Assembly (NCBI GenBank): GCA_041389025.1
Contig: JAWKSP010000002.1
Location: forward strand, 184,079 to 248,078
Length of the DNA stretch: 64,000 nt
Origin: Minisyncoccota bacterium
GTDB lineage: Bacteria; Patescibacteriota; Minisyncoccia; Phycocordibacterales; UBA918
Direction of reading: 5' to 3'
Shown here one piece after another: positions 10,971 to 54,023 of the stretch. The notes under the pieces are model-generated. The model was given only the letters and a program-made list of their open reading frames with translations, did no database searches and had not been told where the DNA came from. The position numbers and the translations under genes were made by a program. Positions within the stretch are counted from its first letter, which is position 1. The number at the start of each line of letters is the position of its first letter.

Positions 10971-11576
10971 GTGTTTATTTTTAATGAAATTGGTATAATA
11001 TCAGTCATGAAAACTAAATCTGTTTTCTTCTCTGCCATCTTTTTTTCAATTATTTTAGGCCTAAGCCACACCACATACGCAGAAATCACGAAAAGTGTAG
11101 TCGATTCTGACATTTTGAATTATCACAACCAAGCGGAAGTTGAGAAAAAAGTTCGTGAGTATTTTGCTGAAACTCCAGACATGATTGAAATTGCTCGTTG
11201 CGAATCAAATTTCCGTCAATATACTGACAGCGGAAAAGCTTTACGCGGTGGTATGAACAATCAAATGGTTGGAGTATTTCAGTTTAATGAGTCCCTACAC
11301 TCAGCTGACGCTAAAAAGCTTGGATTTGATATCAACACTCTCGAAGGCAACTTAGCTTATGCAAAATATGTTTATGACTCACAAGGCAACACCCCGTGGA
11401 TTTCCGTTCGCCACTGTTGGGAGAATCCTGTTTTACCTAAAGTAACGACTGTCTTTAATAATACCGAACAAAGCATTTCAAAACCAACCAAAGCTGAACT
11501 AAAAGCAAAAATAAAACAGCTTTTACAGCTCCTCCAACTTCTACAACAATTACAAAAACTGCAAGAAATGGTTTAG
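10971..11576 (+). CDS. secreted protein with an Rpf/transglycosylase-like CES motif and a Q/L-repeat C-terminus
   Basis: Signal peptide; IARCESNFRQ...GVFQFN resembles the lysozyme-like Rpf domain; C-terminal KQLLQLLQLLQQLQKLQ. Confidence 0.3.
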   Translation: MFIFNEIGIISVMKTKSVFFSAIFFSIILGLSHTTYAEITKSVVDSDILNYHNQAEVEKKVREYFAETPDMIEIARCESNFRQYTDSGKALRGGMNNQMVGVFQFNESLHSADAKKLGFDINTLEGNLAYAKYVYDSQGNTPWISVRHCWENPVLPKVTTVFNNTEQSISKPTKAELKAKIKQLLQLLQLLQQLQKLQEMV

Positions 11577-12130: not shown

Positions 12131-12976
12131 CTAAGGTAATTCTATAATGATAGCATCATGGAAATATTCAGCACTTTTAATTTTACCAGCAGTAACGTCT
12201 TCAAATGGTATATTTTTATTATATCTAGCCACTATTAAGGCAGGTCTGATAGTGTTATCAAATATCATTTTACTAAAACAGTCACCGACACCACATTCAG
12301 ACACCAAAGAAAGGTTGTTGTTTAATTCAGTATATATAATCTTATCTTCACCAGTTAGATAATCACTTTCTACAACATCACTACCAGATACATGGTAATT
12401 TTTTCCTTTATACCAAATTCCATCCAACAATATGTTTCTAGGTACATTATTTATAACTTTAATCACCTTATGTGTAGGTTCATGAACCAGATAATCATCA
12501 AAAACACTTGAAGGATTATACAAAATCCGCATCAAAGTATGGTTATTATCTATTTTTATTAAATATGAATTTAAATCACTGAAAGTAGAACTGTCTGAAA
12601 AAGCGATTTTAGTATTTTCAGTATATAATTCTTTACCCTCTAAAACATATTTATTAATAATGCTATTTTTCATTTCTACATAATCACCAGATTTTAATTC
12701 TGAGTCAGCGGAAACCACTATTTTTTCATCAACAATTCCACTCTCTTCTTTTGTTACTAAATCATCTACTTCCTTAATAACCACTTTTTCCGGAGCGTAA
12801 TTATACCCAATCCAACTTCCAATAAAAGGCAAGGCAACGAACAGTGCCATTGCTAAATATTTTGAAACGGGTGTAACCTTTTTCAAATTAGCATAATAAT
12901 CATTATCAATTTCAGATTCGGGCGTGGTATTGTTTTCAATTTGCATTATTAAAATAGTAACACAATCGAAAATCAC
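12131..12976 (-). CDS. hypothetical membrane-anchored protein (shares its N-terminal anchor with 29518..30978)
   Basis: KVTPVSKYLAMALFVALPFIGSWIGYNY anchor followed by an extracytoplasmic domain. Confidence 0.4.
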   Translation of the reverse strand: MIFDCVTILIMQIENNTTPESEIDNDYYANLKKVTPVSKYLAMALFVALPFIGSWIGYNYAPEKVVIKEVDDLVTKEESGIVDEKIVVSADSELKSGDYVEMKNSIINKYVLEGKELYTENTKIAFSDSSTFSDLNSYLIKIDNNHTLMRILYNPSSVFDDYLVHEPTHKVIKVINNVPRNILLDGIWYKGKNYHVSGSDVVESDYLTGEDKIIYTELNNNLSLVSECGVGDCFSKMIFDNTIRPALIVARYNKNIPFEDVTAGKIKSAEYFHDAIIIELP

Positions 12977-24840: not shown

Positions 24841-25728
24841 CTAATACCCGTATATAGAAAAATGAGATGCAGAAATCCAATTACCCAATACTTTTATATC
24901 ATCACCAGAGGCACCTTGTGATATCAAACTATCTTTCTCCGCTTGGGTTTTAACCTCATAGACTGGCCTTAATCCATTTTTTTTAGCGGCATCTATAACC
25001 CTAACAACTTCTGCCCCAGTCATACCACCCGCCTTACTATAATCAATACAAGTTCCGTTATTGTGACATTCGCTTTTATGCGCACGGGTTGGTGGCATAC
25101 CTTCTGTAACTCTTGCTCCAGACACACCTGCATCTATATGAAACTGGTTTATTTTATCAACGATACTAGGTGATACACTACAACTACTTGCATTCTTACA
25201 CGGAGCAGCAAGAGGAACACAAGTCCCTCCAGTACAACCAGATGGCAACGGTCCTGTTGGTGGTGGAGTGTTAGGATCGGACATGGGATCCCCTAGCCAT
25301 TTAGTTGGCGCAGTCTGCACCTGACACTGTACATCTGTCCACGGTCCATAACCTTGAATTTCCCCACTACCACCCTTTAATAAACCTCGCATAATAGTAT
25401 CTACCAAAAGCCAAGCCGCCATCACAATAACCAGTCCGATAATAGCATTGGTAAACTTACTCTTAGCATCCTCTAAAGCTGAAGTGTTACCACCAGAAGT
25501 TATCAATTTAAAGCCAGCAACCGTCATCATAACCGCAAAAATCATAAAAATAATTCCAAACAACCATTTTATGACAATATTGGCTGTATCTACTAAATTA
25601 CACGCACTACAATCGACTCCATCACAAGTGAGGAAGCCTTGAGCATTTACAGACTCAGCCGGCACTATAAGCACTAAAAGAAATACTAATAATGGTGGAG
25701 AGATAAGTGTTAAAGTTTTTTTAATCAT
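24841..25728 (-). CDS. pilin-like two-TM module (TrbC/VirB2 or T4SS-pilin style) fused to a Cys-rich C-terminal domain with an M15-like HxxGxCxD segment
   Basis: Signal peptide, Cys cluster CDGVDCSAC, TM1, loop GGNTSALEDAKSKF, TM2 NAIIGLVIVMAAWLLV; C-terminal HNNGTCID. Confidence 0.4.
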   Translation of the reverse strand: MIKKTLTLISPPLLVFLLVLIVPAESVNAQGFLTCDGVDCSACNLVDTANIVIKWLFGIIFMIFAVMMTVAGFKLITSGGNTSALEDAKSKFTNAIIGLVIVMAAWLLVDTIMRGLLKGGSGEIQGYGPWTDVQCQVQTAPTKWLGDPMSDPNTPPPTGPLPSGCTGGTCVPLAAPCKNASSCSVSPSIVDKINQFHIDAGVSGARVTEGMPPTRAHKSECHNNGTCIDYSKAGGMTGAEVVRVIDAAKKNGLRPVYEVKTQAEKDSLISQGASGDDIKVLGNWISASHFSIYGY

Positions 25729-25749
25729 AAAATTATTACTTAAATTATA

Positions 25750-26766
25750 CTACAAAGCATCCGCCACACTAGTAATGTTTTTTACATAATTTCTAGTCTC
25801 TACATAACCAGTATTTGGCACACAACTAGAATTTTCAGTCTCATAACATCCTGGACTATCCCAAGCACATTCCCACCGCATCAGTCCCGGACAATCATTG
25901 CTAGGTAAAATTGCAGCTGGTCCACCATTATATTCAGCCAAAGCTCGACTGGTAGCGTTATCATAAGCTCGATGTTTTTCATACAATTGATCATAATACT
26001 TAGCACCTAAAGCTAAGCTATAATTATTATCATCTCGTAATTTTGTCGCTACTTCCTCATCGCTTAAACCTTTTAAACTAGGGTCCAGTCCTCGAGCAGT
26101 ACTAACCAACATCTGACTACAACCATAGGCTGTACCATATGGTGTATCTGGCCCTACTTTATTGGTACAGTTACCAGATTCTTGCATAATTAGTGACTTA
26201 AATATTTTTTGTTGGTACGGATCGTTTATACCATTTGCGACAGCTGTGTTTTGTATATCCGTTTGAATACTACCGGAAGAATTTATTGCATTTACTGCTG
26301 AATTAATTTCATTGGTATTAAATATATGATTATTACTACCAGTAGCTGTGGTCCTAGCAAATTGCTGAGCTGTTGGCTGAGCCACACACTGAATATCATC
26401 CCAGAAGTCATAAGTAGGACTGTTTACCATTACTTTCAAACCAAAATCCACCACAAACCAAACGGCTAAAAAAATAATGTAGCCAACAATTGCATTAATA
26501 AGATATTTTTTGATTTGCGTTCTGGCTCCAGCCTGACCAACCGAAGAAGCTAGCCATAAACCAAGCACCATTATCATGATAATTATAAGAACCCCCAAGA
26601 TAATACCTAGCCAATCAAAAATGTTTTGTATTAATTTAACAACGTGACAAGTTTGACAAGGATCTGCTCCATCTCCTCCACACGGCACCAATCCGGCAGC
26701 GCTCACCAAAATAGGAGAAACCATCAAGGTAAATAAAGTATAAACTTTCCACATATCCAAAATCAT
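25750..26766 (-). CDS. pilin-like two-TM module fused to a lytic transglycosylase (SLT) domain (VirB1-like activity)
   Basis: N-terminus parallels 24841..25728 (VPCGGDGADPCQTC, two TMs, INAIVGYIIFLAVWFV); C-terminal MQESGN...GCSQML...AEYNGG SLT motifs. Confidence 0.5.
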   Translation of the reverse strand: MILDMWKVYTLFTLMVSPILVSAAGLVPCGGDGADPCQTCHVVKLIQNIFDWLGIILGVLIIIMIMVLGLWLASSVGQAGARTQIKKYLINAIVGYIIFLAVWFVVDFGLKVMVNSPTYDFWDDIQCVAQPTAQQFARTTATGSNNHIFNTNEINSAVNAINSSGSIQTDIQNTAVANGINDPYQQKIFKSLIMQESGNCTNKVGPDTPYGTAYGCSQMLVSTARGLDPSLKGLSDEEVATKLRDDNNYSLALGAKYYDQLYEKHRAYDNATSRALAEYNGGPAAILPSNDCPGLMRWECAWDSPGCYETENSSCVPNTGYVETRNYVKNITSVADAL

Positions 26767-28336: not shown

Positions 28337-29362
28337 TTAGTCAAAACTGTCGTCACTATTAAAATAGTCATCACCAAAAGACTCATTATCCGACACATTC
28401 TCACTCCTTCCATACTGATCGTCATCATATCCTATACGATCACTCTCTTCATGACCATCTTCATTGGTAGACTGATCATCAACTAAAGAGCCAGAAGCTG
28501 GATCAAAATCTTCCGGTAATTGAGCGTGCTGTTCAGCTAAATCTGGTGTTAAATCAAACACACTATTAACTGGTTCCACAAAACCAGCAACATCCTCACT
28601 AACAGCATTTTGCCAAGTATCGTCACCAACACCAGTCACCGCCATAGATGCATTTCTATCAACCTCATCAAACTCCAGCTGATCTACACTAGTGGCGTCA
28701 GCGTCGTTTGAACTAAGCAAAAGATAACCAAGACCGAGCAAAGCAATAGTACCAAGAGCGTAAGCTAATGGATTATTGGAACTATCCTTTCCAAACTTAC
28801 TCCATGGTTGCGCAGAATTAGCTTGGTTCGGTATTTCTTTTTCACCTTGTTTATAATTTAAAGCATGTTGATTTGGAATACCAATATCTTCCGCCTGTTT
28901 CCAAGAGTCAATATTTGCACCAAGATAAATAACTATCCAACCATCTTTACGTTTTTGCTCAATCAGCTTTTTAACATCAGCTAACTGGTACTTTTTTGAA
29001 CTATTTTCCAAACCATCAGTCTGAATAACTAACATATTCTTATTAGTACCACCACTTTCTACTATTTTAATAATATCAACAATGGCATCAAAAAGTGGCG
29101 TTAAAGCTCGTGGTTTATATTCTTGAACCTCTACCGGTCTGATGTCACCCATCAGTCCTTCTCGTAAGTTATCAAAACCCATAGAATCAAACTGTCTTAA
29201 GATAAAATTAGCCTTTCCACCTTTCGAATCAGCTTGCATCTTTTTTAAGAATAGGTTTATCGCTTCCACTACCTGTTTTTCGGTACCATACATTGAACCG
29301 GTACGATCCAACAAGTGGGCAACAGTAATATCACTACTAAAAACTAAGGGATGTATGGTCAT
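28337..29362 (-). CDS. von Willebrand factor A domain protein with a C-terminal TM and an acidic tail
   Basis: MIDAS-like LLDRTGSM near the N-terminus; vWA fold spacing; TM ALGTIALLGLGYLLL; D/E-rich C-terminus. Confidence 0.5.
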   Translation of the reverse strand: MTIHPLVFSSDITVAHLLDRTGSMYGTEKQVVEAINLFLKKMQADSKGGKANFILRQFDSMGFDNLREGLMGDIRPVEVQEYKPRALTPLFDAIVDIIKIVESGGTNKNMLVIQTDGLENSSKKYQLADVKKLIEQKRKDGWIVIYLGANIDSWKQAEDIGIPNQHALNYKQGEKEIPNQANSAQPWSKFGKDSSNNPLAYALGTIALLGLGYLLLSSNDADATSVDQLEFDEVDRNASMAVTGVGDDTWQNAVSEDVAGFVEPVNSVFDLTPDLAEQHAQLPEDFDPASGSLVDDQSTNEDGHEESDRIGYDDDQYGRSENVSDNESFGDDYFNSDDSFD

Positions 29363-29517: not shown

Positions 29518-30978
29518 TTAAAAAGTTAATTCATTTACATTCACCACCGCCTCTATTAAATCCCCTGTCTGACGTAAGTTATCGTATGACAAGTAAGTTC
29601 CCTCCTCCTCAACAATAGCGTTACTCTTAGACTGTTCTAATTTATTTAGTGATACAGCAAAAATCTCAACTGTGGTGTCATTAATCCAATTTACTCGTAT
29701 CTCAGCATCACCGTATCCATCTTTATAAAAATAAGTAAAATTATTTGGATCTATTTCATGTATTTTTACAGCTTTCCCTAAAACAAGGTCATAAATAAAT
29801 AATTCATATTTATTATTTTTAGGAAAAACAACTATATATCTATTATCAGAACTTAAAGTCTTGCGTGGGTAAGACTGCATAACAAAACCAGTATCCGTTA
29901 GGACATTTTCTTCAGTAGTCCTGTCAAAAACAACAAGTGAGGCGTAACCCTGACCTTCGTAAGGTGAGGACGTTAGATAAATTCTTTCTTTAGTGCTTGA
30001 TGAAGCTAGTAATTTTATAGAAGAGAAATTGAATAAATCATAATCAGAAGTGTCTAGTGTTTTTAATAATTCATATTTTCCTGACACGCTATTCTTATAG
30101 CATAAGTCCGTACTTTTTTTATAATAATCATCCTCATAAAAATACAGGAAGTAACTTACATCTTTGTCTTTATATTTTTCCGTATATCCTTCTTTTTCAC
30201 AGTAAAAGTTCATTACCCTTTCTTCATCCAATCCCTCACTCCAAGACTCTTTTTTCACATATTTTTCACCATCAAAAATATATTCTGTATATATCCATTC
30301 TTGAGCCGATTTAGCACTGGAAGTAATACTTTTATTTTCTATATCAAAAGTTGGGTTTACTAAGTTAGATAAATCAGGTTCAAAAGTAGAAAAATCATTA
30401 CTTAACTCTAAGAGACCGTTGTCAGGATTATAAAGATAAAAACGATAAAACCTATTTACTCCACCATATCCAACATTAGACAAGACCCCCAAATCCAAAT
30501 AATGGTCGTAATTTATATCGCGATTTGTAATCAAAAAAGATTCTTTATTGGCGATACCAGCTAATCCAGCAAAATTTACATCTATGGTTTGCACTACTTC
30601 GTACTTTTCATTCAGTACCTCGAGAACACTCTGATCATAGCGAATTTTATATTTACCCATATCAACCGTAGTAGTAGCTACAAGACCCTTATTTAAGACA
30701 AATTCATCCCCAATCTCTACTTTTTCCTCAGGTCCCGACGCTGTATCTTCCTCAATCATGACCCCCTCTACTTCTTCCACCACCTCCTCCAAAGCAATCT
30801 TATATCCCACATAAGCACCCACAAATGGTAGTAATATAAATAACACAAGCGCTAAATACTTTGACAACGGCGTGACTTTAGTCAACCTGTCGGTTGAGTT
30901 TTGTTGTTCTAAAGTTTCTGTTGAAACTTTAGTTTGAGTTTCTTCATCTATTTTATTTGTGTTTGTCTCTGGTGACAT
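29518..30978 (-). CDS. large hypothetical membrane-anchored extracytoplasmic protein
   Basis: N-terminal KVTPLSKYLALVLFILLPFVGAYVGYKI anchor shared with 12131..12976; Tyr-rich beta-rich ectodomain. Confidence 0.4.
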   Translation of the reverse strand: MSPETNTNKIDEETQTKVSTETLEQQNSTDRLTKVTPLSKYLALVLFILLPFVGAYVGYKIALEEVVEEVEGVMIEEDTASGPEEKVEIGDEFVLNKGLVATTTVDMGKYKIRYDQSVLEVLNEKYEVVQTIDVNFAGLAGIANKESFLITNRDINYDHYLDLGVLSNVGYGGVNRFYRFYLYNPDNGLLELSNDFSTFEPDLSNLVNPTFDIENKSITSSAKSAQEWIYTEYIFDGEKYVKKESWSEGLDEERVMNFYCEKEGYTEKYKDKDVSYFLYFYEDDYYKKSTDLCYKNSVSGKYELLKTLDTSDYDLFNFSSIKLLASSSTKERIYLTSSPYEGQGYASLVVFDRTTEENVLTDTGFVMQSYPRKTLSSDNRYIVVFPKNNKYELFIYDLVLGKAVKIHEIDPNNFTYFYKDGYGDAEIRVNWINDTTVEIFAVSLNKLEQSKSNAIVEEEGTYLSYDNLRQTGDLIEAVVNVNELTF

Positions 30979-32119: not shown

Positions 32120-34818
32120 TTAAGCGGTTACCGGTTCTTTTGCTTTTACAACACGTTTTGTGACAGGTTTTTTTCTTCCCCCTTTACTCTTTACGTCAAA
32201 ATCAATTTCACCCTTACGCATACAGACTTTTACCACTCCTTTTTGTAACATACCCTCACCCACCATCATATTAGCCACCGGTGTTAGTATCTTACTTTGG
32301 ATCAAGCGTTTTAATGGTCTCGCACCAAACTTTGGATCATAACCTTCTTTAGCCAAGTACTCCAGCACATCATCGGTTAAAGTCATAATTATTTCTTTAT
32401 TTTCTAGACGACGTTGTACTTCATCAATCTGAATAGAAACAATACTGCGAATAGTTTCTGGTGACAAAATATCAAAGACAATTATCTCATCAAGTCGGTT
32501 TAAGAACTCTGGTCGGAAGTAGTTCTTGAGACTATCCATTACTTTATCCTTGGCCTGCACATATTGAGTAGCATCATCTTTTTCAGCCGCAAAACCAAAA
32601 CTAGACATTCTATCTATATGCTCAGCACCAATATTAGAGGTCATAATAATAACTGTATTGCGGAAATTAACCTTTCTACCTTTAGCATCAGTCAAATGAC
32701 CAGAGTCAAGGACCTGCAATAGAATATTAAATACTTCAGGATGAGCTTTTCTATTTCATCCAACAAGATAACTGAGTAAGGACGATGTCGTACTCTCTCG
32801 GTAATTGATCCTCCTTCTTCGTGTCCCACATAACCAGGTGGCGAACCAATAATCTTAGACACAGCATGTTTTTCCATGAACTCTGACATATCAATCCGAA
32901 GTAAAGCATCAGAATCATTAAACATAAATTCTGCTAAAGCCTTAGATAGTTCAGTTTTACCAACTCCAGTTGGACCAAGAAACAGAAATGAACCGATCGG
33001 ACGATTTGGATCAGCAATTCCCGCTCGTGAACGCTTGATAGCGTCAGCCACCAGTTTAATAGCATGATCTTGACCAACTACTTTATTTTTTAGAACATCC
33101 TCCATTCTAGCTAGTTTACGAGCTTCCGCTTCAAGCATGCGAGACACCGGTATACCAGTCCAACGCGAGACTACAGAAGCAATATCTTCTTCAGTCACCT
33201 CTTCTTTTAGTAAACGACGACTGCGTTGCAGTTTTTTAAGACGTTTCATTTTATCATCAAGTGCTTTTTGTACTTTAGGAATTGAATCATAACGAATTTC
33301 CGCTGCCTGAGTTAAATCAGCCATTGCTTCAGCATTTTCTGCTTCTACTCTAAGTTCTTCTAATTCCTTCTTTAATTTACTAATTTCTCCAAGAGTATTT
33401 TTTTCATTACTCCATTTAGTTTCTAAAGCTGAAGTGGTTTCTTTTAGTTCACCGATTTCTCGTTCGATTTCTTTTATTCTGTCTTTTATTTTCTTCTTAT
33501 TTTCAGACACTTCTAACTCCTTTCGCAAAGCTTCACGTTCGATTTCTAAACGTCGCACCTGTCTGTCAGACACTACCAACTCTTCCGGTTTATTTTCTAG
33601 TGAAATACGTAAAGCAGAAGCCGCTTCATCAATCAGATCCACAGCTTTATCTGGTAAAAAACGATCAGTAATGTAACGAGAAGAAAGATTTACTGCTGAT
33701 ACAATCGCATCATCAGTAATTCGTACTCCATGAAAAAGCTCGTATTTTTCAGACAGACCACGAAGAATAGCGATAGTGTCTTCCGGTGACGGCTCATTTA
33801 CAAACACTGGTTGAAAACGTCGAGTCAAGGCCGGATCTCGTTCAATGTGTTTTTGATACTCTTTTAAAGTAGTAGCTCCGATTACTCTTATTTCACCACG
33901 AGCCAAAGCTGGCTTTAGCATATTAGAAGCATCCATCGATCCTTCGGCTTGTCCTGCACCAACTATAGTATGCAATTCATCGATAAATAAAATTATTCCT
34001 CCATCAGAAGCTTCTACTTCTTTCATCACTGCTTTTAAACGCTCCTCGAACTCACCACGAAACTTAGTACCAGCCACTAAAAGACCTAAATCAAGAGATA
34101 GAATCTCTTTTTCTCGAACTGACTCGGGTACATAACCAAGCACTATTTGCTGGGCCAAACCCTCAGCTATTGCAGTCTTTCCCACTCCGGCCTCTCCTAT
34201 CAACACTGGGTTATTCTTAGTACGACGAGACAGTATCTGAATCACCCGTTGTATTTCCACATCACGACCAATTACCGGATCTAGTTTATTTTCTTGTGCC
34301 AATTTAGTAAGATTTCTAGTGTATTTAGTTAGAGCACGATATTTTTTAGGAGCCTGAACGTCAGTAACATTATGTTCACGCAACTCCTTAACTGTACGTA
34401 TGACTTTCTCTCGATCAATTCCCGAACGCTGTAATAACTCAACCGCCGGCCCCGGATACTCAAGAACAGCTACAAACAAATGCTCTACTCCAACATAAGA
34501 ATCACCCATTTGCTCAGCTAACTTACCAGAAAACTCTAGCGCTTTAGCTAGATCAGGCGTCAAATAAAGTTGGTAAGTTGGTGAAATCGTAGTTTGCATC
34601 TCACTCACCTCTAATGCTTCGAGCATAATATCAGTAAAAGCAATCACGTCGACATCCATTCGGTCAAGAATTGAGATCACCATACTTTCATCCTGCATGG
34701 CCAATGCGGTCAAAAGATGAATTGGATTAACATGATTTTGTCCTCGTTCGATAGCTAGTTCATGCGCTTTTCTGATAGCTTCTTTAGCTTTTGATGTAAA
34801 ATTTTGAAAATTAGGCAT
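32120..34818 (-). pseudogene. clpB: ClpB chaperone (AAA+ disaggregase) interrupted by a 1-nt frameshift near 32745
   Basis: N-domain, NBD1, coiled-coil M-domain and NBD2 are all recognisable. Reading LLDEIEK then jumps frame; adding one g to gaaaag-ctcatcc restores [16 protein letters not shown]. Confidence 0.7.
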
Positions 34819-35789: not shown

Positions 35790-36359
35790 CTACTTAGTAA
35801 TAATTTTTACATTTTCAGATAAATTTTTGGTAATAAAATCTAAATCTTGCTTTGAATAGTTGGTACCGATTAAGTTTAATACCTTTAAGTTACTTAAATT
35901 ACTAAGTTCATACGGTAAACCAGTAATAGGATTGTTAGACAAATCTAAGACCTCAAGCTTTGATAACTGGCCAATTTCGGCTGGTACTCCGGTAAAATTA
36001 TTATCACTTAGATCAAGAGTTTGTAGATTTTGTAAATGTCTAATCTCAGCCGGCAATGACCCGCTTAGTTTATTGTGAGATAAATCCAAAACAGTGACTT
36101 CTTTTCTAGAAAAAATACCGCTTGGTTCTTTAGTTAGATTTTGGTAGCTCAAATCAATAACTTGATCATCATTTGCTTCTGATGATTTATCCAAGAGACT
36201 ATCTGGTACTGCTTGATTAACCATATTGTTTACTGTTTTTTCTGTATTTAATCTTTCTTCCAAGACTTTTTTACCAGCTGTAGTCTCGGTTTCATTAGAA
36301 ATATACATAAATCCAAAAACAATTATGACAATCGCGAGCAATAGACTAATTAAACCCAT
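35790..36359 (-). CDS. leucine-rich repeat protein with an N-terminal TM anchor
   Basis: At least five LxxLxLxxNxL repeats (LDLSHNKLSGSLP, LDLSDNNFTGVP, LDLSNNPITGLP...). Confidence 0.6.
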   Translation of the reverse strand: MGLISLLLAIVIIVFGFMYISNETETTAGKKVLEERLNTEKTVNNMVNQAVPDSLLDKSSEANDDQVIDLSYQNLTKEPSGIFSRKEVTVLDLSHNKLSGSLPAEIRHLQNLQTLDLSDNNFTGVPAEIGQLSKLEVLDLSNNPITGLPYELSNLSNLKVLNLIGTNYSKQDLDFITKNLSENVKIITK

Positions 36360-45703: not shown

Positions 45704-46174
45704 AAACCACCTCTCCCGCAACCAAGAAAGAACTCTTTTCATCTCATCTTCATTTAATTTCTCTCTCTTATCAGAATCAATATTGTTTTCTAGTGATTTA
45801 TTTAAAGCAGGATACCAACCTCCGGGACTTTCAAAATCCCCTTCAACACGCGGAATTATATGTAGATGCAAGTGCAAAACCGTCTGTCCCGCCGACTTAC
45901 CGTCTTGAATCGTCCAATCAAAACCGGTAGCTTTAAATTCTTTTACAATAAAATTGGTAACTTTTCTGGAAAAAGAAAAGAAATACTGGACTTGCGTTTC
46001 CGACAAATCATTTAGCGAGGTATGTTTCTGCTTCGGTAGGACAAGCACATGCCCGGGCACAATAGGAGCAATATTGTAGATAGCCAGACAATCATCTGAT
46101 TCTACAAACACACTATGTGTTACATCAAAATTCCCAAATCTATAATTTTTATCATTCATGTTACTTGCCACCAA
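45698..46174 (-). CDS. HIT-family (histidine triad) nucleotide hydrolase
   Basis: HLHLHIIPR histidine-triad motif. Confidence 0.8.
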   Translation of the reverse strand: MVASNMNDKNYRFGNFDVTHSVFVESDDCLAIYNIAPIVPGHVLVLPKQKHTSLNDLSETQVQYFFSFSRKVTNFIVKEFKATGFDWTIQDGKSAGQTVLHLHLHIIPRVEGDFESPGGWYPALNKSLENNIDSDKREKLNEDEMKRVLSWLRERWFK

Positions 46175-47327
46175 ACTCCCTCACCAACTTCACAAACACC
46201 GCATCAGTCCAACCAAACCCTTCTTGCGTCGGATATCGACCACTTTTTCCCACGTCAACTTTCACTACATTATATTTTTCCCAGAAAGTACCGGTTTTTT
46301 CGAAAACTTTACGATTTGTTTCAAGCCATTTTTTGGCCAGTCTCTCAGCTTCTTCTCTAAATCCATAACTTAAAAGTCCCTTGACAACTATCCACTGTTG
46401 ATTGGCCCAACCGTTTGGATAATCCCATTGCTTGTAGTCGCCCGACAACCCATCTTTTTGAGTGCTAGCCAACCCACCTTTACACTCAAACATTTTAATA
46501 TTTTCCAAAACTTTTTTAGCTTGACTTTTAGTGGCTAAGCCGGCCCATAGCGGATAAAATCCGGAAATTGCCCAAAAGTCGCTTTGTCGTTTGTTTACAT
46601 AATCGTAATCAAAGAAAAAACCTTTTTCGTTATCCCACATTAGTTTGTTTATAGTTTCTTTACGTTTCTTGGCACGCTCTCTGTATTTTTTTACCTTGTC
46701 TTTATCAGCTAAAATTTTGTATATAAAAGCTAAATCAACTTCATATTTGTACAGAAGACTATTTAAATCAACCGGTAAAAAATCCATGCATCTTTTATCA
46801 AAACGTGAAGTCATGTCCCAACCCGACTCATGCTCGGCTGTGTCGTCAGTATGGAGATGGTCACAATATCTAGACAAACCTTTATGTACTTTATGAACTT
46901 TCTTGCTGTCTACCCAATATTTATTTAATTCTTTTTCCGCTACTTTAGCTACGTATTCTAACCATTTTTTATCTTTGGTTTTGTTGTATACCTCTAAAAT
47001 CATTGAAGTGAGGAAAGGTGGTTGAGAAGTGCCCAAGTTGTAATAGCGGTTACGCGACGGCACGATACCAAAACGGTTACATAAGTAAACCAAATTATTT
47101 ACCATACCCTTAGCCATTTCTATCTGATCTGTTTCCACCAACCCAAGGATAATAAAATAACTGTCCCAATAAAACTGGTCATTGTCGTATATACCGGATG
47201 AAGCGGACGGGGCGATAAAAGGGTTTGGTAGACCAAGATGAATACCTTGGTCTTCAGGGAGATAGAAAGTTAATTCTTCTTGGTGGCTTTCAATATATTC
47301 AAGACATTTTTTGTATTTTGTCTTCAT
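46161..47327 (-). CDS. trehalase-like glycoside hydrolase (GH37-like)
   Basis: QFYWDSYF (trehalase signature 1-like), ESGWDMTSRF, QWDYPNGWANQQW (signature 2-like). Confidence 0.6.
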   Translation of the reverse strand: MKTKYKKCLEYIESHQEELTFYLPEDQGIHLGLPNPFIAPSASSGIYDNDQFYWDSYFIILGLVETDQIEMAKGMVNNLVYLCNRFGIVPSRNRYYNLGTSQPPFLTSMILEVYNKTKDKKWLEYVAKVAEKELNKYWVDSKKVHKVHKGLSRYCDHLHTDDTAEHESGWDMTSRFDKRCMDFLPVDLNSLLYKYEVDLAFIYKILADKDKVKKYRERAKKRKETINKLMWDNEKGFFFDYDYVNKRQSDFWAISGFYPLWAGLATKSQAKKVLENIKMFECKGGLASTQKDGLSGDYKQWDYPNGWANQQWIVVKGLLSYGFREEAERLAKKWLETNRKVFEKTGTFWEKYNVVKVDVGKSGRYPTQEGFGWTDAVFVKLVREFGGK

Positions 47328-50354: not shown

Positions 50355-51304
50355 TTATCTAAGGACATTTGTCACTTTTTCATATAGTACTTCATTAGGA
50401 CTCTTTCCATCAAGGGAACAATGTTCCAGGTTGTTATAGTATTCATTCCAAAGGCGAATTTTCTTTTTCAGATTGGTAACAGAAGTAAATCTGTTACGTT
50501 GATAAAACTTCTCCTCATCTTCTCTATGAGAGCGTTCAACGGTACCGTTCTGAGCCGGTTTCCCTGGATCAATCAGGTAATGAGTAATCTTGTGTTTAAT
50601 ACACCACTCATCTAAAGCATGAATAGTCTTTATGGTTAAGTCTGAACGTTTATTGGTGCCAAGGTAATAATTGGTAAAGGTACTATGATTATCGGTTTTG
50701 ATAGCTTGTATGGTATTGGGAAACTTCTGTTTAACTATCTCCATCATTCTAATAGCATGGTGAGTAGTTTGTTCATCAAATATTTCTAAATGTCTCCATC
50801 TACTAGCGGTATCTATGACTGTATATTGATAGTATTTAAGGCCTTGTATAGCCCCTGGAACATACTTCACGTCCATCTCTAGGAGTGTTCACCTGGTTGT
50901 CTCACTGCTTTTATATATTTATACTTTATCTTCTTAACTCGGTACTTACGTACTAATCCTGCATTTTTAAGTATTTTAGATACGGTACTATGTGGTACTA
51001 ACAACCCTTGTTTCTTCAATCTCCAATGCAGTTTCTTGGAACAAAGACCGGTTTGTTTACGGAGGGTGATAACTTCTTCTTTGATACGTATTGGAGTTTC
51101 GTTAGGTTGTGTCTTTGGTTCCGTACTTTTAGGTATCAATCCATCCAGGCCACGTTCTTTATATGCTTTCTTCCACCTTTTTAAACTACGTTCACTATGT
51201 GGACATACTTTAGCTACGTCTACCAACCTCATTTCTTTATTAATAATTGGTTTGATCCACCTCCACCTTTCTTCTTGTATAGTTTTTGCCATAGATATAC
51301 ACAT
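50355..51304 (-). pseudogene. IS481-family transposase split by a -1 frameshift between the HTH and the rve/DDE domains
   Basis: ORF A ...RQPGEHS* then ORF B MDVKYVPG...; in the -1 frame the join reads QPGE-LLEMDVKYVPG (IS481-like PGELxxIDVKKL); KTDNHSTF and PAQNGTVERSHR DDE-region motifs; no obvious slippery heptamer. Confidence 0.55.
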
Positions 51305-52851: not shown

Positions 52852-53307
52852 TTAAATAGGATTAACCTTCGGCTTCAAAGTCTGATCAAAAACTTCATCA
52901 GCACCTGTACTTGAAGCAAGTAGATTAATAACACCCCAGAATATAATGATTAAAACAAAACCTAGAATTGCGTAAATCATCAAACTCTTTCCTTTTTCTT
53001 TTGACTCTTCGTTGGCTCCACCAGCTATAAAGTATTGGAACATTCCCCAAACGAATACGAGAAAACCAATGCCAACAATAAATGGTATTAATACAGTGTT
53101 CGCAAAAACAAGTATGGTTTGAAGCAAATCGCCAAACCTACCTCCTCCTCCGGCTCCTACACCTCCTGGATCAGCTAATTGTGCAGAAGCATTTGCTATC
53201 GGCAAAAAAAACAAGACTAGACTAGTGAGAAGAAAATTAAAACGTTGCATAACTTTTTGTAAATTTATTAATAAATAATTAATCGTGTACCTTTTAAAAT
53301 TATACAT
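52852..53307 (-). CDS. two-TM pilin-like small protein (paralog)
   Basis: Signal peptide, TM1, loop AGGANEESKEKGKS, TM2 LMIYAILGFVLIIIFWGVINLL. Confidence 0.4.
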   Translation of the reverse strand: MYNFKRYTINYLLINLQKVMQRFNFLLTSLVLFFLPIANASAQLADPGGVGAGGGGRFGDLLQTILVFANTVLIPFIVGIGFLVFVWGMFQYFIAGGANEESKEKGKSLMIYAILGFVLIIIFWGVINLLASSTGADEVFDQTLKPKVNPI

Positions 53308-53358
53308 AAAATATTATTTTTTGGTATATCAGATTTGAAATATTGTGAATAATTTTAC

Positions 53359-53613
53359 TTAACCAAAAATTGATTTTCTAAGCATATTTATAATACCCCA
53401 TACAGAAATAATCAATACGACGACCAACACAGCCACTAAAGCCAGTCTTTTTCCTTCCTCTCGTTTTTTTTCGTCTCCAGCATTTATCACCCAGGCGTCA
53501 AACACCTTCCAAACCAAAAAAAGGAACACAAAAGATAAGAGCGTTGGTATTAAAATATTTATCAAGCCGATAAAGAGATTAACTAGTTCTTTAAATGTGG
53601 TAGGAGTATTCAT
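53359..53613 (-). CDS. two-TM pilin-like small protein (paralog)
   Basis: TM1, loop NAGDEKKREEGKR, TM2 LALVAVLVVVLIISVWGIIN. Confidence 0.4.
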   Translation of the reverse strand: MNTPTTFKELVNLFIGLINILIPTLLSFVFLFLVWKVFDAWVINAGDEKKREEGKRLALVAVLVVVLIISVWGIINMLRKSIFG

Positions 53614-53618
53614 AAAAA

Positions 53619-54023
53619 TTACGGAGAGGGTGGAGGGGTAAAAGCACTAACTAGGTTCTTAATAATCTCACCAATCGCATACGCTCCCAAAATAAGTACT
53701 CCACCAATAATAGCGTAAGTGAGGGCTTTTTTAGCAGTAGTTAGCTTAGTCTCGTCACCTTGAGCGGTCACATAGAGAAAGCCGGCATAGATAATGAAAA
53801 AAATAACTATCGGGGTGGCTATCACCACTACAATACCTAATATACCTTCCAATAAGTCTTCTATACTATTTACTGATAGCGGGTTATTTAGAGTTACATT
53901 AGTACTTGGAGGAGGAGCTGAATACGTCATTCTCGGTAGAAACAAAAATAACCATAATAAAAAACCATGGTTACAGAATTTTCGAACATCTTCTCCTTTT
54001 TCTTTAATAATATTCATATCCAA
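53619..54023 (-). CDS. two-TM pilin-like small protein (paralog)
   Basis: TM1, loop TAQGDETKLTTAKKA, TM2 LTYAIIGGVLILGAYAIGEII; Pro-rich C-terminus. Confidence 0.4.
   Translation of the reverse strand: MDMNIIKEKGEDVRKFCNHGFLLWLFLFLPRMTYSAPPPSTNVTLNNPLSVNSIEDLLEGILGIVVVIATPIVIFFIIYAGFLYVTAQGDETKLTTAKKALTYAIIGGVLILGAYAIGEIIKNLVSAFTPPPSP

Follow-up and report, generated by a model that had tools for sequence, protein, structure and literature searches.

Two classes of N-terminal signal, KxYKxGKxW and YSIRK/GXXS, are the closest starting point for the element described here. The YSIRK/GXXS motif lies in the N-terminal targeting segment of many unrelated Gram-positive surface proteins, directs septal secretion in S. 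aureus and is conserved beyond what Sec export needs (PMC5962339, PMC10865820). At the other end of the protein, the tags of the LPXTG/sortase, PEP-CTERM/exosortase and MYXO-CTERM/myxosortase systems combine a boundary motif, a transmembrane helix and a basic cluster (PMC1569441, PMC11980579). In this work, we analysed a 64,000-nucleotide stretch of the contig JAWKSP010000002.1 (hereafter the window), in which two otherwise different proteins begin with a nearly identical segment. We find that this segment is very probably a lineage-specific N-terminal module for membrane targeting or anchoring, carried by proteins whose C-terminal domains are unrelated.

Both genes lie on the reverse strand, in the open reading frames (ORFs) 12131..12976 and 29518..30978, and both contain the segments that a previous, sequence-only reading of the window had quoted. 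Their features are as follows.

12131..12946, reverse strand: coding sequence of the first module protein, 271 residues from the ATG at 12946 (100% match to P0001)
12767..12892, reverse strand: conserved N-terminal module of protein 1, ANLKKVTPVSKYLAMALFVALPFIGSWIGYNYAPEKVVIKEV (translation and profile match, E 3.4e-27, 92.7 bits)
12797..12871, reverse strand: predicted transmembrane helix of protein 1, PVSKYLAMALFVALPFIGSWIGYNY (AlphaFold2 helix, residues 26-50 of 271)
29518..30978, reverse strand: coding sequence of the second module protein, 486 residues (100% match to P0174, NCBI R3B60_04245)
30760..30888, reverse strand: conserved N-terminal module of protein 2, RLTKVTPLSKYLALVLFILLPFVGAYVGYKIALEEVVEEVEGV (translation and profile match, E 7.2e-22, 75.6 bits)
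30796..30870, reverse strand: predicted transmembrane helix of protein 2, PLSKYLALVLFILLPFVGAYVGYKI (AlphaFold2 helix, residues 37-61)

The 281 residues previously given for the first protein, counted from the GTG at 12976 that the ORF finder reported, are probably too many. The true start is probably the ATG at 12946 (271 residues, MQIENN...), which we prefer because the NCBI annotation agrees and the homologue P0003 begins MQIENS. This protein (P0001) is the NCBI entry R3B60_04150, a 271-residue hypothetical protein of Candidatus Paceibacterota bacterium that matches the module profile with E 6.7e-22 in a library of 1.84e9 proteins, and it is encoded on the same 250,242-bp contig as R3B60_04245 (P0174).

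BLASTP aligns the two window proteins over a region in which 19 of 31 residues are identical and 26 positive (E 8e-11). The alignment is confined to the block, with no significant similarity outside it. Ungapped, the block of the pair reads xL(K/T)KVTP(V/L)SKYLAxxLFxxLPFxGxxxGYxxA(P/L)E(K/E)VV and spans about 42-45 residues, made up of a basic juxtamembrane motif, the helix and, beyond it, A-P-E-K-V-V; the 28 residues quoted before cover only part of it. A profile hidden Markov model (HMM) run over all six reading frames of the window at E<10 finds these two ORFs only, and no third copy.

Over 36 aligned codons, the two genes share 22 identical residues, 14 of which are encoded by different codons. 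Over these codons, 58% of nucleotides are identical; the two genes share no exact match longer than 11 nt, and that one lies outside the segment. The low nucleotide identity and the codon differences indicate that the similarity is maintained at the protein level, and the pair is best read as an old divergence under purifying selection. Chance likeness and a recent partial duplication, the latter named in the sequence-only reading as what would undo its proposal, are refuted by the BLASTP score, by hundreds of strong matches elsewhere and by the codon differences.

The module extends well beyond this pair. A database search with the 281-residue translation returned 48 proteins, most of them similar to the query only over its N-terminal 11-27%, and from these, used ungapped, we derived the consensus M(E/Q)P(E/Q)...(A/S)PL(K/H)K-VTP(V/L)SKYLAMALF(I/V)xLPFxGG(W/Y)(I/V)GYxYAPEKVVEVE(K/R)VV. 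Searched against 1.84 billion representative proteins (50%-identity clusters), the resulting 45-position profile matches 1,983 representatives at E<=1e-3, of which 846 reach E<=1e-10; among the 150 matches listed, the module begins at residues 9-97 of proteins of 67-450 residues. A pattern-limited scan of one genome for each of 185,579 species gave 83 confirmed sites at 79 loci in 62 assemblies, so that the motif, for which the sequence-only reading had proposed an HMM scan, is indeed present in relatives. Between one and six copies were found per assembly, counts that are lower bounds because the metagenome-assembled genomes (MAGs) are incomplete and the scan is limited to the pattern.

Most of these assemblies are labelled Patescibacteria, Paceibacteria, Kaiserbacteria, Nomurabacteria or, by an automated label, Saccharibacteria. 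A small number are assigned to groups outside these, namely Azotimanducaceae, Acidimicrobiales, Patiriisocius, Pseudomonadales and Gammaproteobacteria (L008, L070, L032, L033, L040, L068 and L078), and several of these contigs show a clpB/T4SS_pilin/miaA synteny typical of the Candidate Phyla Radiation (CPR) and a GC content of about 40-42%, on which grounds we consider them probably mis-binned. A phage origin was rejected, as IMG/VR viral contigs gave zero matches to the module. No Pfam-A or NCBIfam model covers the module, either in the window proteins at E<=1 or in 150 family members, and searching the PDB sequences with the profile gives chance matches only (E>0.1). Full-text searches of the literature on N-terminal motifs, sorting signals, signal peptides and surface proteins of Patescibacteria, Paceibacteria and Parcubacteria found no description of the module, and the passages that a term search retrieved from a paper on the Patescibacteria type IV secretion system (T4SS) do not mention it (PMC12102498).

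That conservation goes well beyond what a generic transmembrane helix requires, as had been suspected, is supported by 255 distinct copies, among which T7, P22, F23 and G29 are conserved in about 100%, S10 and G25 in 99%, K11, A14, F18 and Y30 in 98%, Y12, L13 and L17 in 94-96%, and V6, P8, G26, A33, P34, K36 and E39 in 90-93%. Within the helix, conservation is lowest at positions 16, 20, 24 and 31, which all fall on one stripe. The face opposite to it, A14-F18-P22-G25-G29, contains a GxxxG pair, and the helical conservation moment of 6.4 compares with a mean of 3.4 under permutation (p about 0.05). Y12 and W27/Y30/Y32 have the spacing of interfacial aromatic belts. Divergent half-modules at L068:5947-6135, L072:5749-6102 and L078:5863-6630 keep VTPxSKYLAxALFxxLPF and have lost GGWIGYxYAPEK; some are found in very short ORFs (63-118 residues), and one lies in the closed Nomurabacteria chromosome CP060229 (L072).

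As a separate observation, one sub-family carries a pair of cysteines in the predicted cytoplasmic tail before VTP, in the form CPWYxPLC-(K/R/T)-VTP... or ICDPLCRVT... (L035:697-1443, L043:2466-3434, L024:998-1684, L060:4535-5905 and L071:1952-2899). The pair could be a metal or disulfide motif.

AlphaFold2 predicts one long helix in each window protein, with a predicted local distance difference test (pLDDT) score across the block of 81-96 in the 271-residue protein and 90-95 in the 486-residue protein and a score above 90 for the helix itself in both, followed in both models by a low-confidence linker of about 45-65 residues and then by beta-rich domains. The hydrophobic part of the helix measures 19-25 residues. 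In 173 members, VTP is preceded by a tail with a median length of 21 residues and a net charge of -3, and the net charge of the flanking 12 residues is +2.1 before the helix and -1.0 after it. As this asymmetry fits the positive-inside rule, we infer that the N-terminus faces the cytoplasm and the C-terminus the outside. None of the 173 members has a second hydrophobic segment or a C-terminal hydrophobic tail (18-mer), and a single LPXTG-like match among them is at chance level; the window proteins themselves end in ...AIIIELP (271 residues) and ...VNVNELTF (486 residues).

Only (T/N/S)-Y-A would satisfy the -3/-1 rule, and the next residue, at +1, is proline in 91% of copies; in the 486-residue protein it is leucine. 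Proline at +1 blocks cleavage by type I signal peptidase, as established in work on the E. coli leader peptidase, so we read the segment as a putative uncleaved type II signal-anchor. The two proteins, called 'secreted' in the sequence-only reading, are accordingly more likely to be membrane-anchored (type II). There is no cysteine at any conserved column of the 45-residue profile that could mark a lipobox, no RR pair of a Tat motif in the n-region consensus PL(K/H)KVTPxSKY, and no G|F...E pattern of a type IV pilin-like class III signal in ...VTPxSKY-LAMALF.... The YSIRK/GXXS and KxYKxGKxW motifs are absent from the consensus, and no NCBIfam signal-class model matches the window proteins or the 150 members. 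The conserved block lies at the N-terminus, and neither a C-terminal hydrophobic tail nor an NCBIfam match points to PEP-CTERM.

Behind this anchor, the C-terminal parts show no relation to one another. The regions after the module in 256 members form 133 BLAST groups, of which 96 are singletons, and the only Pfam domains among 150 members are DKNYY (9), PsbP_2 (3) and Cyt-b5 (1). The ectodomain of the 271-residue protein has relatives in 11 other members. That of the 486-residue protein contains one recognizable domain.

30250..30525, reverse strand: XAC2610-related domain in the ectodomain of protein 2 (residues 152-243; NCBIfam NF047539)

The match to NF047539 has E 3.1e-16 and 59.6 bits against a cut-off of 35. 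Its DINYDHYLD loop may be Ca-binding-like, by comparison with motifs of the FG-GAP type. XAC2610 has an immunity role, which should not be carried over to the 486-residue protein; it is reportedly named in the Xanthomonas literature on T4SS effectors and immunity. The same domain stands behind the module once in P0147 and twice in P0176, and is combined with differing C-terminal parts in P0028, P0175, P0177 and the 486-residue window protein, while in P0178 it follows a generic MKK...TM anchor and not the module. As DKNYY, PsbP_2, Cyt-b5 and XAC2610_fam are clearly unrelated, the diversity behind the module reflects shuffling and not just divergence.

Two genomic settings suggest how such exchange may occur. 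The 486-residue gene occupies a slot that runs from clpB through a DoxX-like membrane protein (not always present), the module gene, a VWA-like protein (likewise) and two T4SS_pilin/VirB2-like genes, one of them fused to an SLT transglycosylase, to miaA on the other strand. This order recurs in 10-14 other loci, yet the slot holds at least 14 groups of ectodomains across 21 loci, and in L025 it carries the ectodomain type of the 271-residue window protein. A Patescibacteria MAG (JAZKIJ01, L035:697-6744) has a cluster of five module genes in about 6 kb, and four of these follow one another directly. Over their 5' tails and modules, the four tandem copies share 68-100% of their nucleotides, in a mosaic that takes in upstream DNA, whereas their ectodomains are about 30% identical, which is chance level. 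The mosaic 5' ends indicate that the conserved 5' end is also subject to duplication and recombination.

Where clpB, T4SS_pilin and miaA recur as neighbours, in 10-14 of 80 loci, they reflect local synteny. VirB2-like pilin arrays are common in Patescibacteria generally (PMC12102498). T4SS_pilin genes (PF18895, VirB2-like) are no more frequent near module genes than across the window, which holds four of them in two pairs at 24841-26766 and 52852-54023, both on the reverse strand, with 25750..26766 being the SLT fusion. It is because such arrays are common and four such genes occur in the window that we read the presence of pilin genes nearby as synteny and not as a functional link. A scan of the window ORFs, all but about a dozen of them and none before 7548, detected no virB4.

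Taken together, we favour the explanation that the module is a reusable signal-anchor cassette of Paceibacteria-type CPR bacteria, which makes specific contacts, with itself or with a partner in trans, and displays interchangeable ectodomains; we put its probability at roughly 0.55. An acidic tail of about 20 residues and the basic juxtamembrane motif L-(K/H)-K-V-T-P-x-S-K-Y would both lie in the cytoplasm, and a single helix of about 25 residues, with Pro-Phe in its middle and GGxxG, would cross the membrane. A-P-E-K would close the helix at the outer face, its proline preventing a cut by type I signal peptidase, and the V/E/K-rich stretch with the disordered acidic linker (45-65 residues) would act as a stalk presenting the exchangeable, mostly beta-rich ectodomain on the cell surface. 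The near-invariant face (A14, F18, P22, G25, G29) and the cytoplasmic T/S/K/Y motif would make specific protein contacts: the module would either self-associate or dock to a conserved partner, a membrane or targeting protein whose gene lies at another place in the genome. Finally, duplication and recombination at the conserved 5' end would place new ectodomains on the same anchor.

Several observations weigh against this explanation, however. The helical-face statistic is only marginal, at p about 0.05, so that the common membrane partner suggested by the sequence-only reading fits the conserved face A14-F18-P22-G25-G29 but draws marginal statistical support from it. The aromatic belts (Y12, W27, Y30, Y32) and a snorkelling K11 might be expected of any well-placed transmembrane helix, and the 1-6 copies seen per genome, as lower bounds, are few. 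Both AlphaFold2 models derive from shallow alignments and are of moderate overall confidence (mean pLDDT 61-69), and Foldseek searches with them against the PDB return only weak propeller-blade-like matches with a low template-modelling score; because these fold matches are weak, we give no function to either ectodomain. The rule on non-cleavage comes from E. coli, and CPR signal peptidases may differ. Lastly, all-versus-all clustering of ORFs around the 79 loci yields no enriched neighbour family, and for 125 genes no more than two positions from a module gene (the first half of a neighbour set that has 131 more), Pfam shows neither an enriched family nor a peptidase that stands out, the top counts being AAA with 5, T4SS_pilin with 4 and TrmB with 3.

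This empty neighbourhood bears most on the idea of a dedicated sorting or anchoring signal with a dedicated peptidase alongside, which the sequence-only reading had raised. The part that stands is a selected N-terminal tag on unrelated C-terminal domains; no peptidase or other family is enriched near the module genes, so that a sortase- or exosortase-like machine stays hypothetical. We treat as doubtful the stronger proposal that the module is the tag of an undescribed N-terminal sorting or surface-display system in Paceibacteria, a mirror image of the C-terminal sortase/exosortase tags, in which a dedicated membrane factor acting in trans would bind the helix face and VTPxSKY. If true, such a factor would position, process or oligomerize rapidly exchanging ectodomains, which could serve host attachment or defence in these putative episymbionts.

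The module could instead be a specialized cleavable leader, a long signal peptide cut by a dedicated or atypical peptidase so that the ectodomain is freed to the wall or the medium, much like the signal peptides of the SipW class. YSIRK peptides already show that an N-terminal signal can be both conserved and specially processed (PMC5962339). The conserved Y-x-Y-A-P-E-K-V-V-E sits exactly at the outer membrane boundary, where T/N/S-Y-A fits the -3/-1 rule, the tripartite layout of basic cluster, helix and boundary motif mirrors that of C-terminal sorting tags, and cleaved signals and substrates of intramembrane proteases often have a helix-breaking proline and GG in their hydrophobic core. Set against this, the candidate site is followed by proline in the 91% of copies noted above, the hydrophobic helix of 19-25 residues has the length of an anchor, and neither a peptidase gene enriched near the 79 loci nor an NCBIfam signal-class match speaks for processing, which leaves a leader unlikely in our judgement. 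The helix-destabilizing P22 and G25-G26, together with the N-in orientation, would also suit regulated intramembrane proteolysis, in which the type II protein is a substrate of a site-2 protease or an enzyme of the signal peptide peptidase (SPP) type and the conserved cytoplasmic peptide is released as a signal, much as in the models offered by anti-sigma factors and Eep-processed pheromone precursors. VTPxSKY is, moreover, the part retained in the divergent half-modules (L068, L072 and L078). The cytoplasmic part is, however, about 20-30 residues long, acidic and variable except for the juxtamembrane motif, no anti-sigma domain is detected with Pfam or NCBIfam, and no sigma factor or protease gene is linked, so that we regard this route as highly improbable.

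It is also conceivable that the module has no special function, and that common descent of a fast-evolving paralogous family, local gene conversion and the generic constraints of membrane insertion in a reduced genome account for its conservation, the ectodomains having merely diverged until no likeness can be recognized. Concerted evolution of the 5' ends in tandem arrays, upstream DNA included, is what such a process would produce, the low copy number and the empty search for a partner fit it, and the many orphan ectodomains might share a fold, given that both models are beta-rich and propeller-blade-like. Yet the block is near-invariant over 62 assemblies and about 2,000 clusters at 50% identity while synonymous sites are saturated, P0178 uses an ordinary anchor for the same ectodomain, and the DKNYY, PsbP_2, Cyt-b5 and XAC2610_fam families are clearly unrelated to one another. 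We thus consider an absence of special function rather unlikely, and retain the reusable signal-anchor cassette as the favoured explanation.

The remainder of the window, with a GC content of about 37%, includes the housekeeping genes for SerRS, DprA, TopA, RelA/SpoT, ParB, MiaA, ClpB, an IscS-like protein, IF-2 and GyrA, and offers several further observations. Directly downstream of the 486-residue gene, 28337-29362 (reverse strand) encodes a VWA-like domain that matches only weakly (E 0.003) and misses the Pfam cut-off, followed by an apparent hydrophobic segment and then a long acidic Asp/Ser-rich C-terminal tail. ClpB at 32120-34818 (reverse strand) is split into two overlapping ORFs, 32692..34818 (708 residues) and 32120..32719 (199 residues), the latter holding the rest of AAA_2 and the D2-small domain, whereas relatives have a single ORF of 903-906 residues; this is a frameshift, reflecting an assembly error, a pseudogene or a real split. 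An insertion sequence (IS)-type transposase at 50355-51304 (reverse strand) consists of a helix-turn-helix ORF (50879..51304) and an rve integrase-core ORF (50355..50876), like frameshifted IS3-like elements. On the forward strand, 10971-11576 encodes a secreted-looking protein of 201 residues with a CESNFRQY...GVFQ motif and a terminal low-complexity stretch, QLLQLLQLLQQLQKLQ; the motif resembles those of transglycosylase-like or lysozyme-like domains, and Pfam gives no match for this protein at E<=0.01. A small leucine-rich-repeat protein of 189 residues (35790-36359, reverse strand) and a trehalase-family glycoside hydrolase (46161-47327, reverse strand) both look unusual for a CPR genome, given its reduced size.

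Paceibacteria and other CPR bacteria are mostly uncultured and thought to live attached to other cells, and their surface proteomes are almost wholly unannotated; Paceibacteria-type organisms are also thought to be monoderm. In this setting, a tag of 45 residues suggests that about 2,000 protein clusters belong to one class of membrane-anchored, outward-facing and fast-changing proteins. As the tag is detectable by sequence alone, it offers a direct way to list proteins of the lineage that are candidates for host interaction or defence, and the module would make a useful new Pfam or NCBIfam model. Its invariant residues are targets for finding the machinery of insertion, positioning or processing, and if a dedicated partner exists, this would be the first N-terminal counterpart of the sorting systems of the sortase/exosortase type.

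How, then, does the module compare with the systems already described? Like YSIRK, it is a conserved motif at the N-terminus of otherwise unrelated proteins, but YSIRK is a short motif within a cleaved signal peptide of Firmicutes, usually accompanied by a C-terminal LPXTG, whereas the module comprises 45 residues, spans the helix and both of its boundaries, and probably stays as an anchor. With the C-terminal sorting tags it shares the same tripartite design on many unrelated proteins of one lineage, in mirror image. It differs in lying at the opposite end, in its motifs, in having no cognate enzyme nearby and in its few copies per genome, and the likeness to PEP-CTERM-type tags drawn by the sequence-only reading fails in copy number, as those tags typically occur in dozens of copies per genome and the module in 1-6 (a lower bound). 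Furthermore, cleavage of an N-terminal tag would merely free the protein and not transfer it, as C-terminal tags do.

Three further systems share part of this pattern. The SipW-dependent class (TasA/TapA, TIGR04088) has an N-terminal signal on a handful of proteins per genome and a dedicated signal peptidase; the module has no match to that model, no SipW-like gene beside its loci and a +1 proline that speaks against cleavage. The TonB/TolA anchors, which are N-in single-pass proteins with a conserved helix face that binds ExbB/TolQ, a charged spacer and an outward domain, serve as a model for how a partner-docked anchor might work. The module nevertheless has no sequence similarity to them, no SHLS motif, no ExbB/ExbD context and a variable C-terminal domain. 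In the Vlp/Vsp proteins of Mycoplasma, a conserved 5' region with a signal sequence precedes a variable surface part. These are lipoproteins with a lipobox cysteine, in which conservation is largely at the DNA level within one species and variation arises through repeats and phase switching. The tandem array with recombination at its conserved end (L035) resembles them, whereas the lack of a cysteine and the protein-level conservation across about 60 species do not. The module thus belongs to none of the YSIRK/GXXS signals, the C-terminal sorting tags or the variable lipoproteins of Mycoplasma, because the defining motifs tested are all absent and no cognate enzyme was found. By analogy, it would work most like the N-terminal signal classes of the YSIRK/GXXS type, with a layout that mirrors the C-terminal tags and an evolution that resembles that of the Mycoplasma variable lipoproteins.

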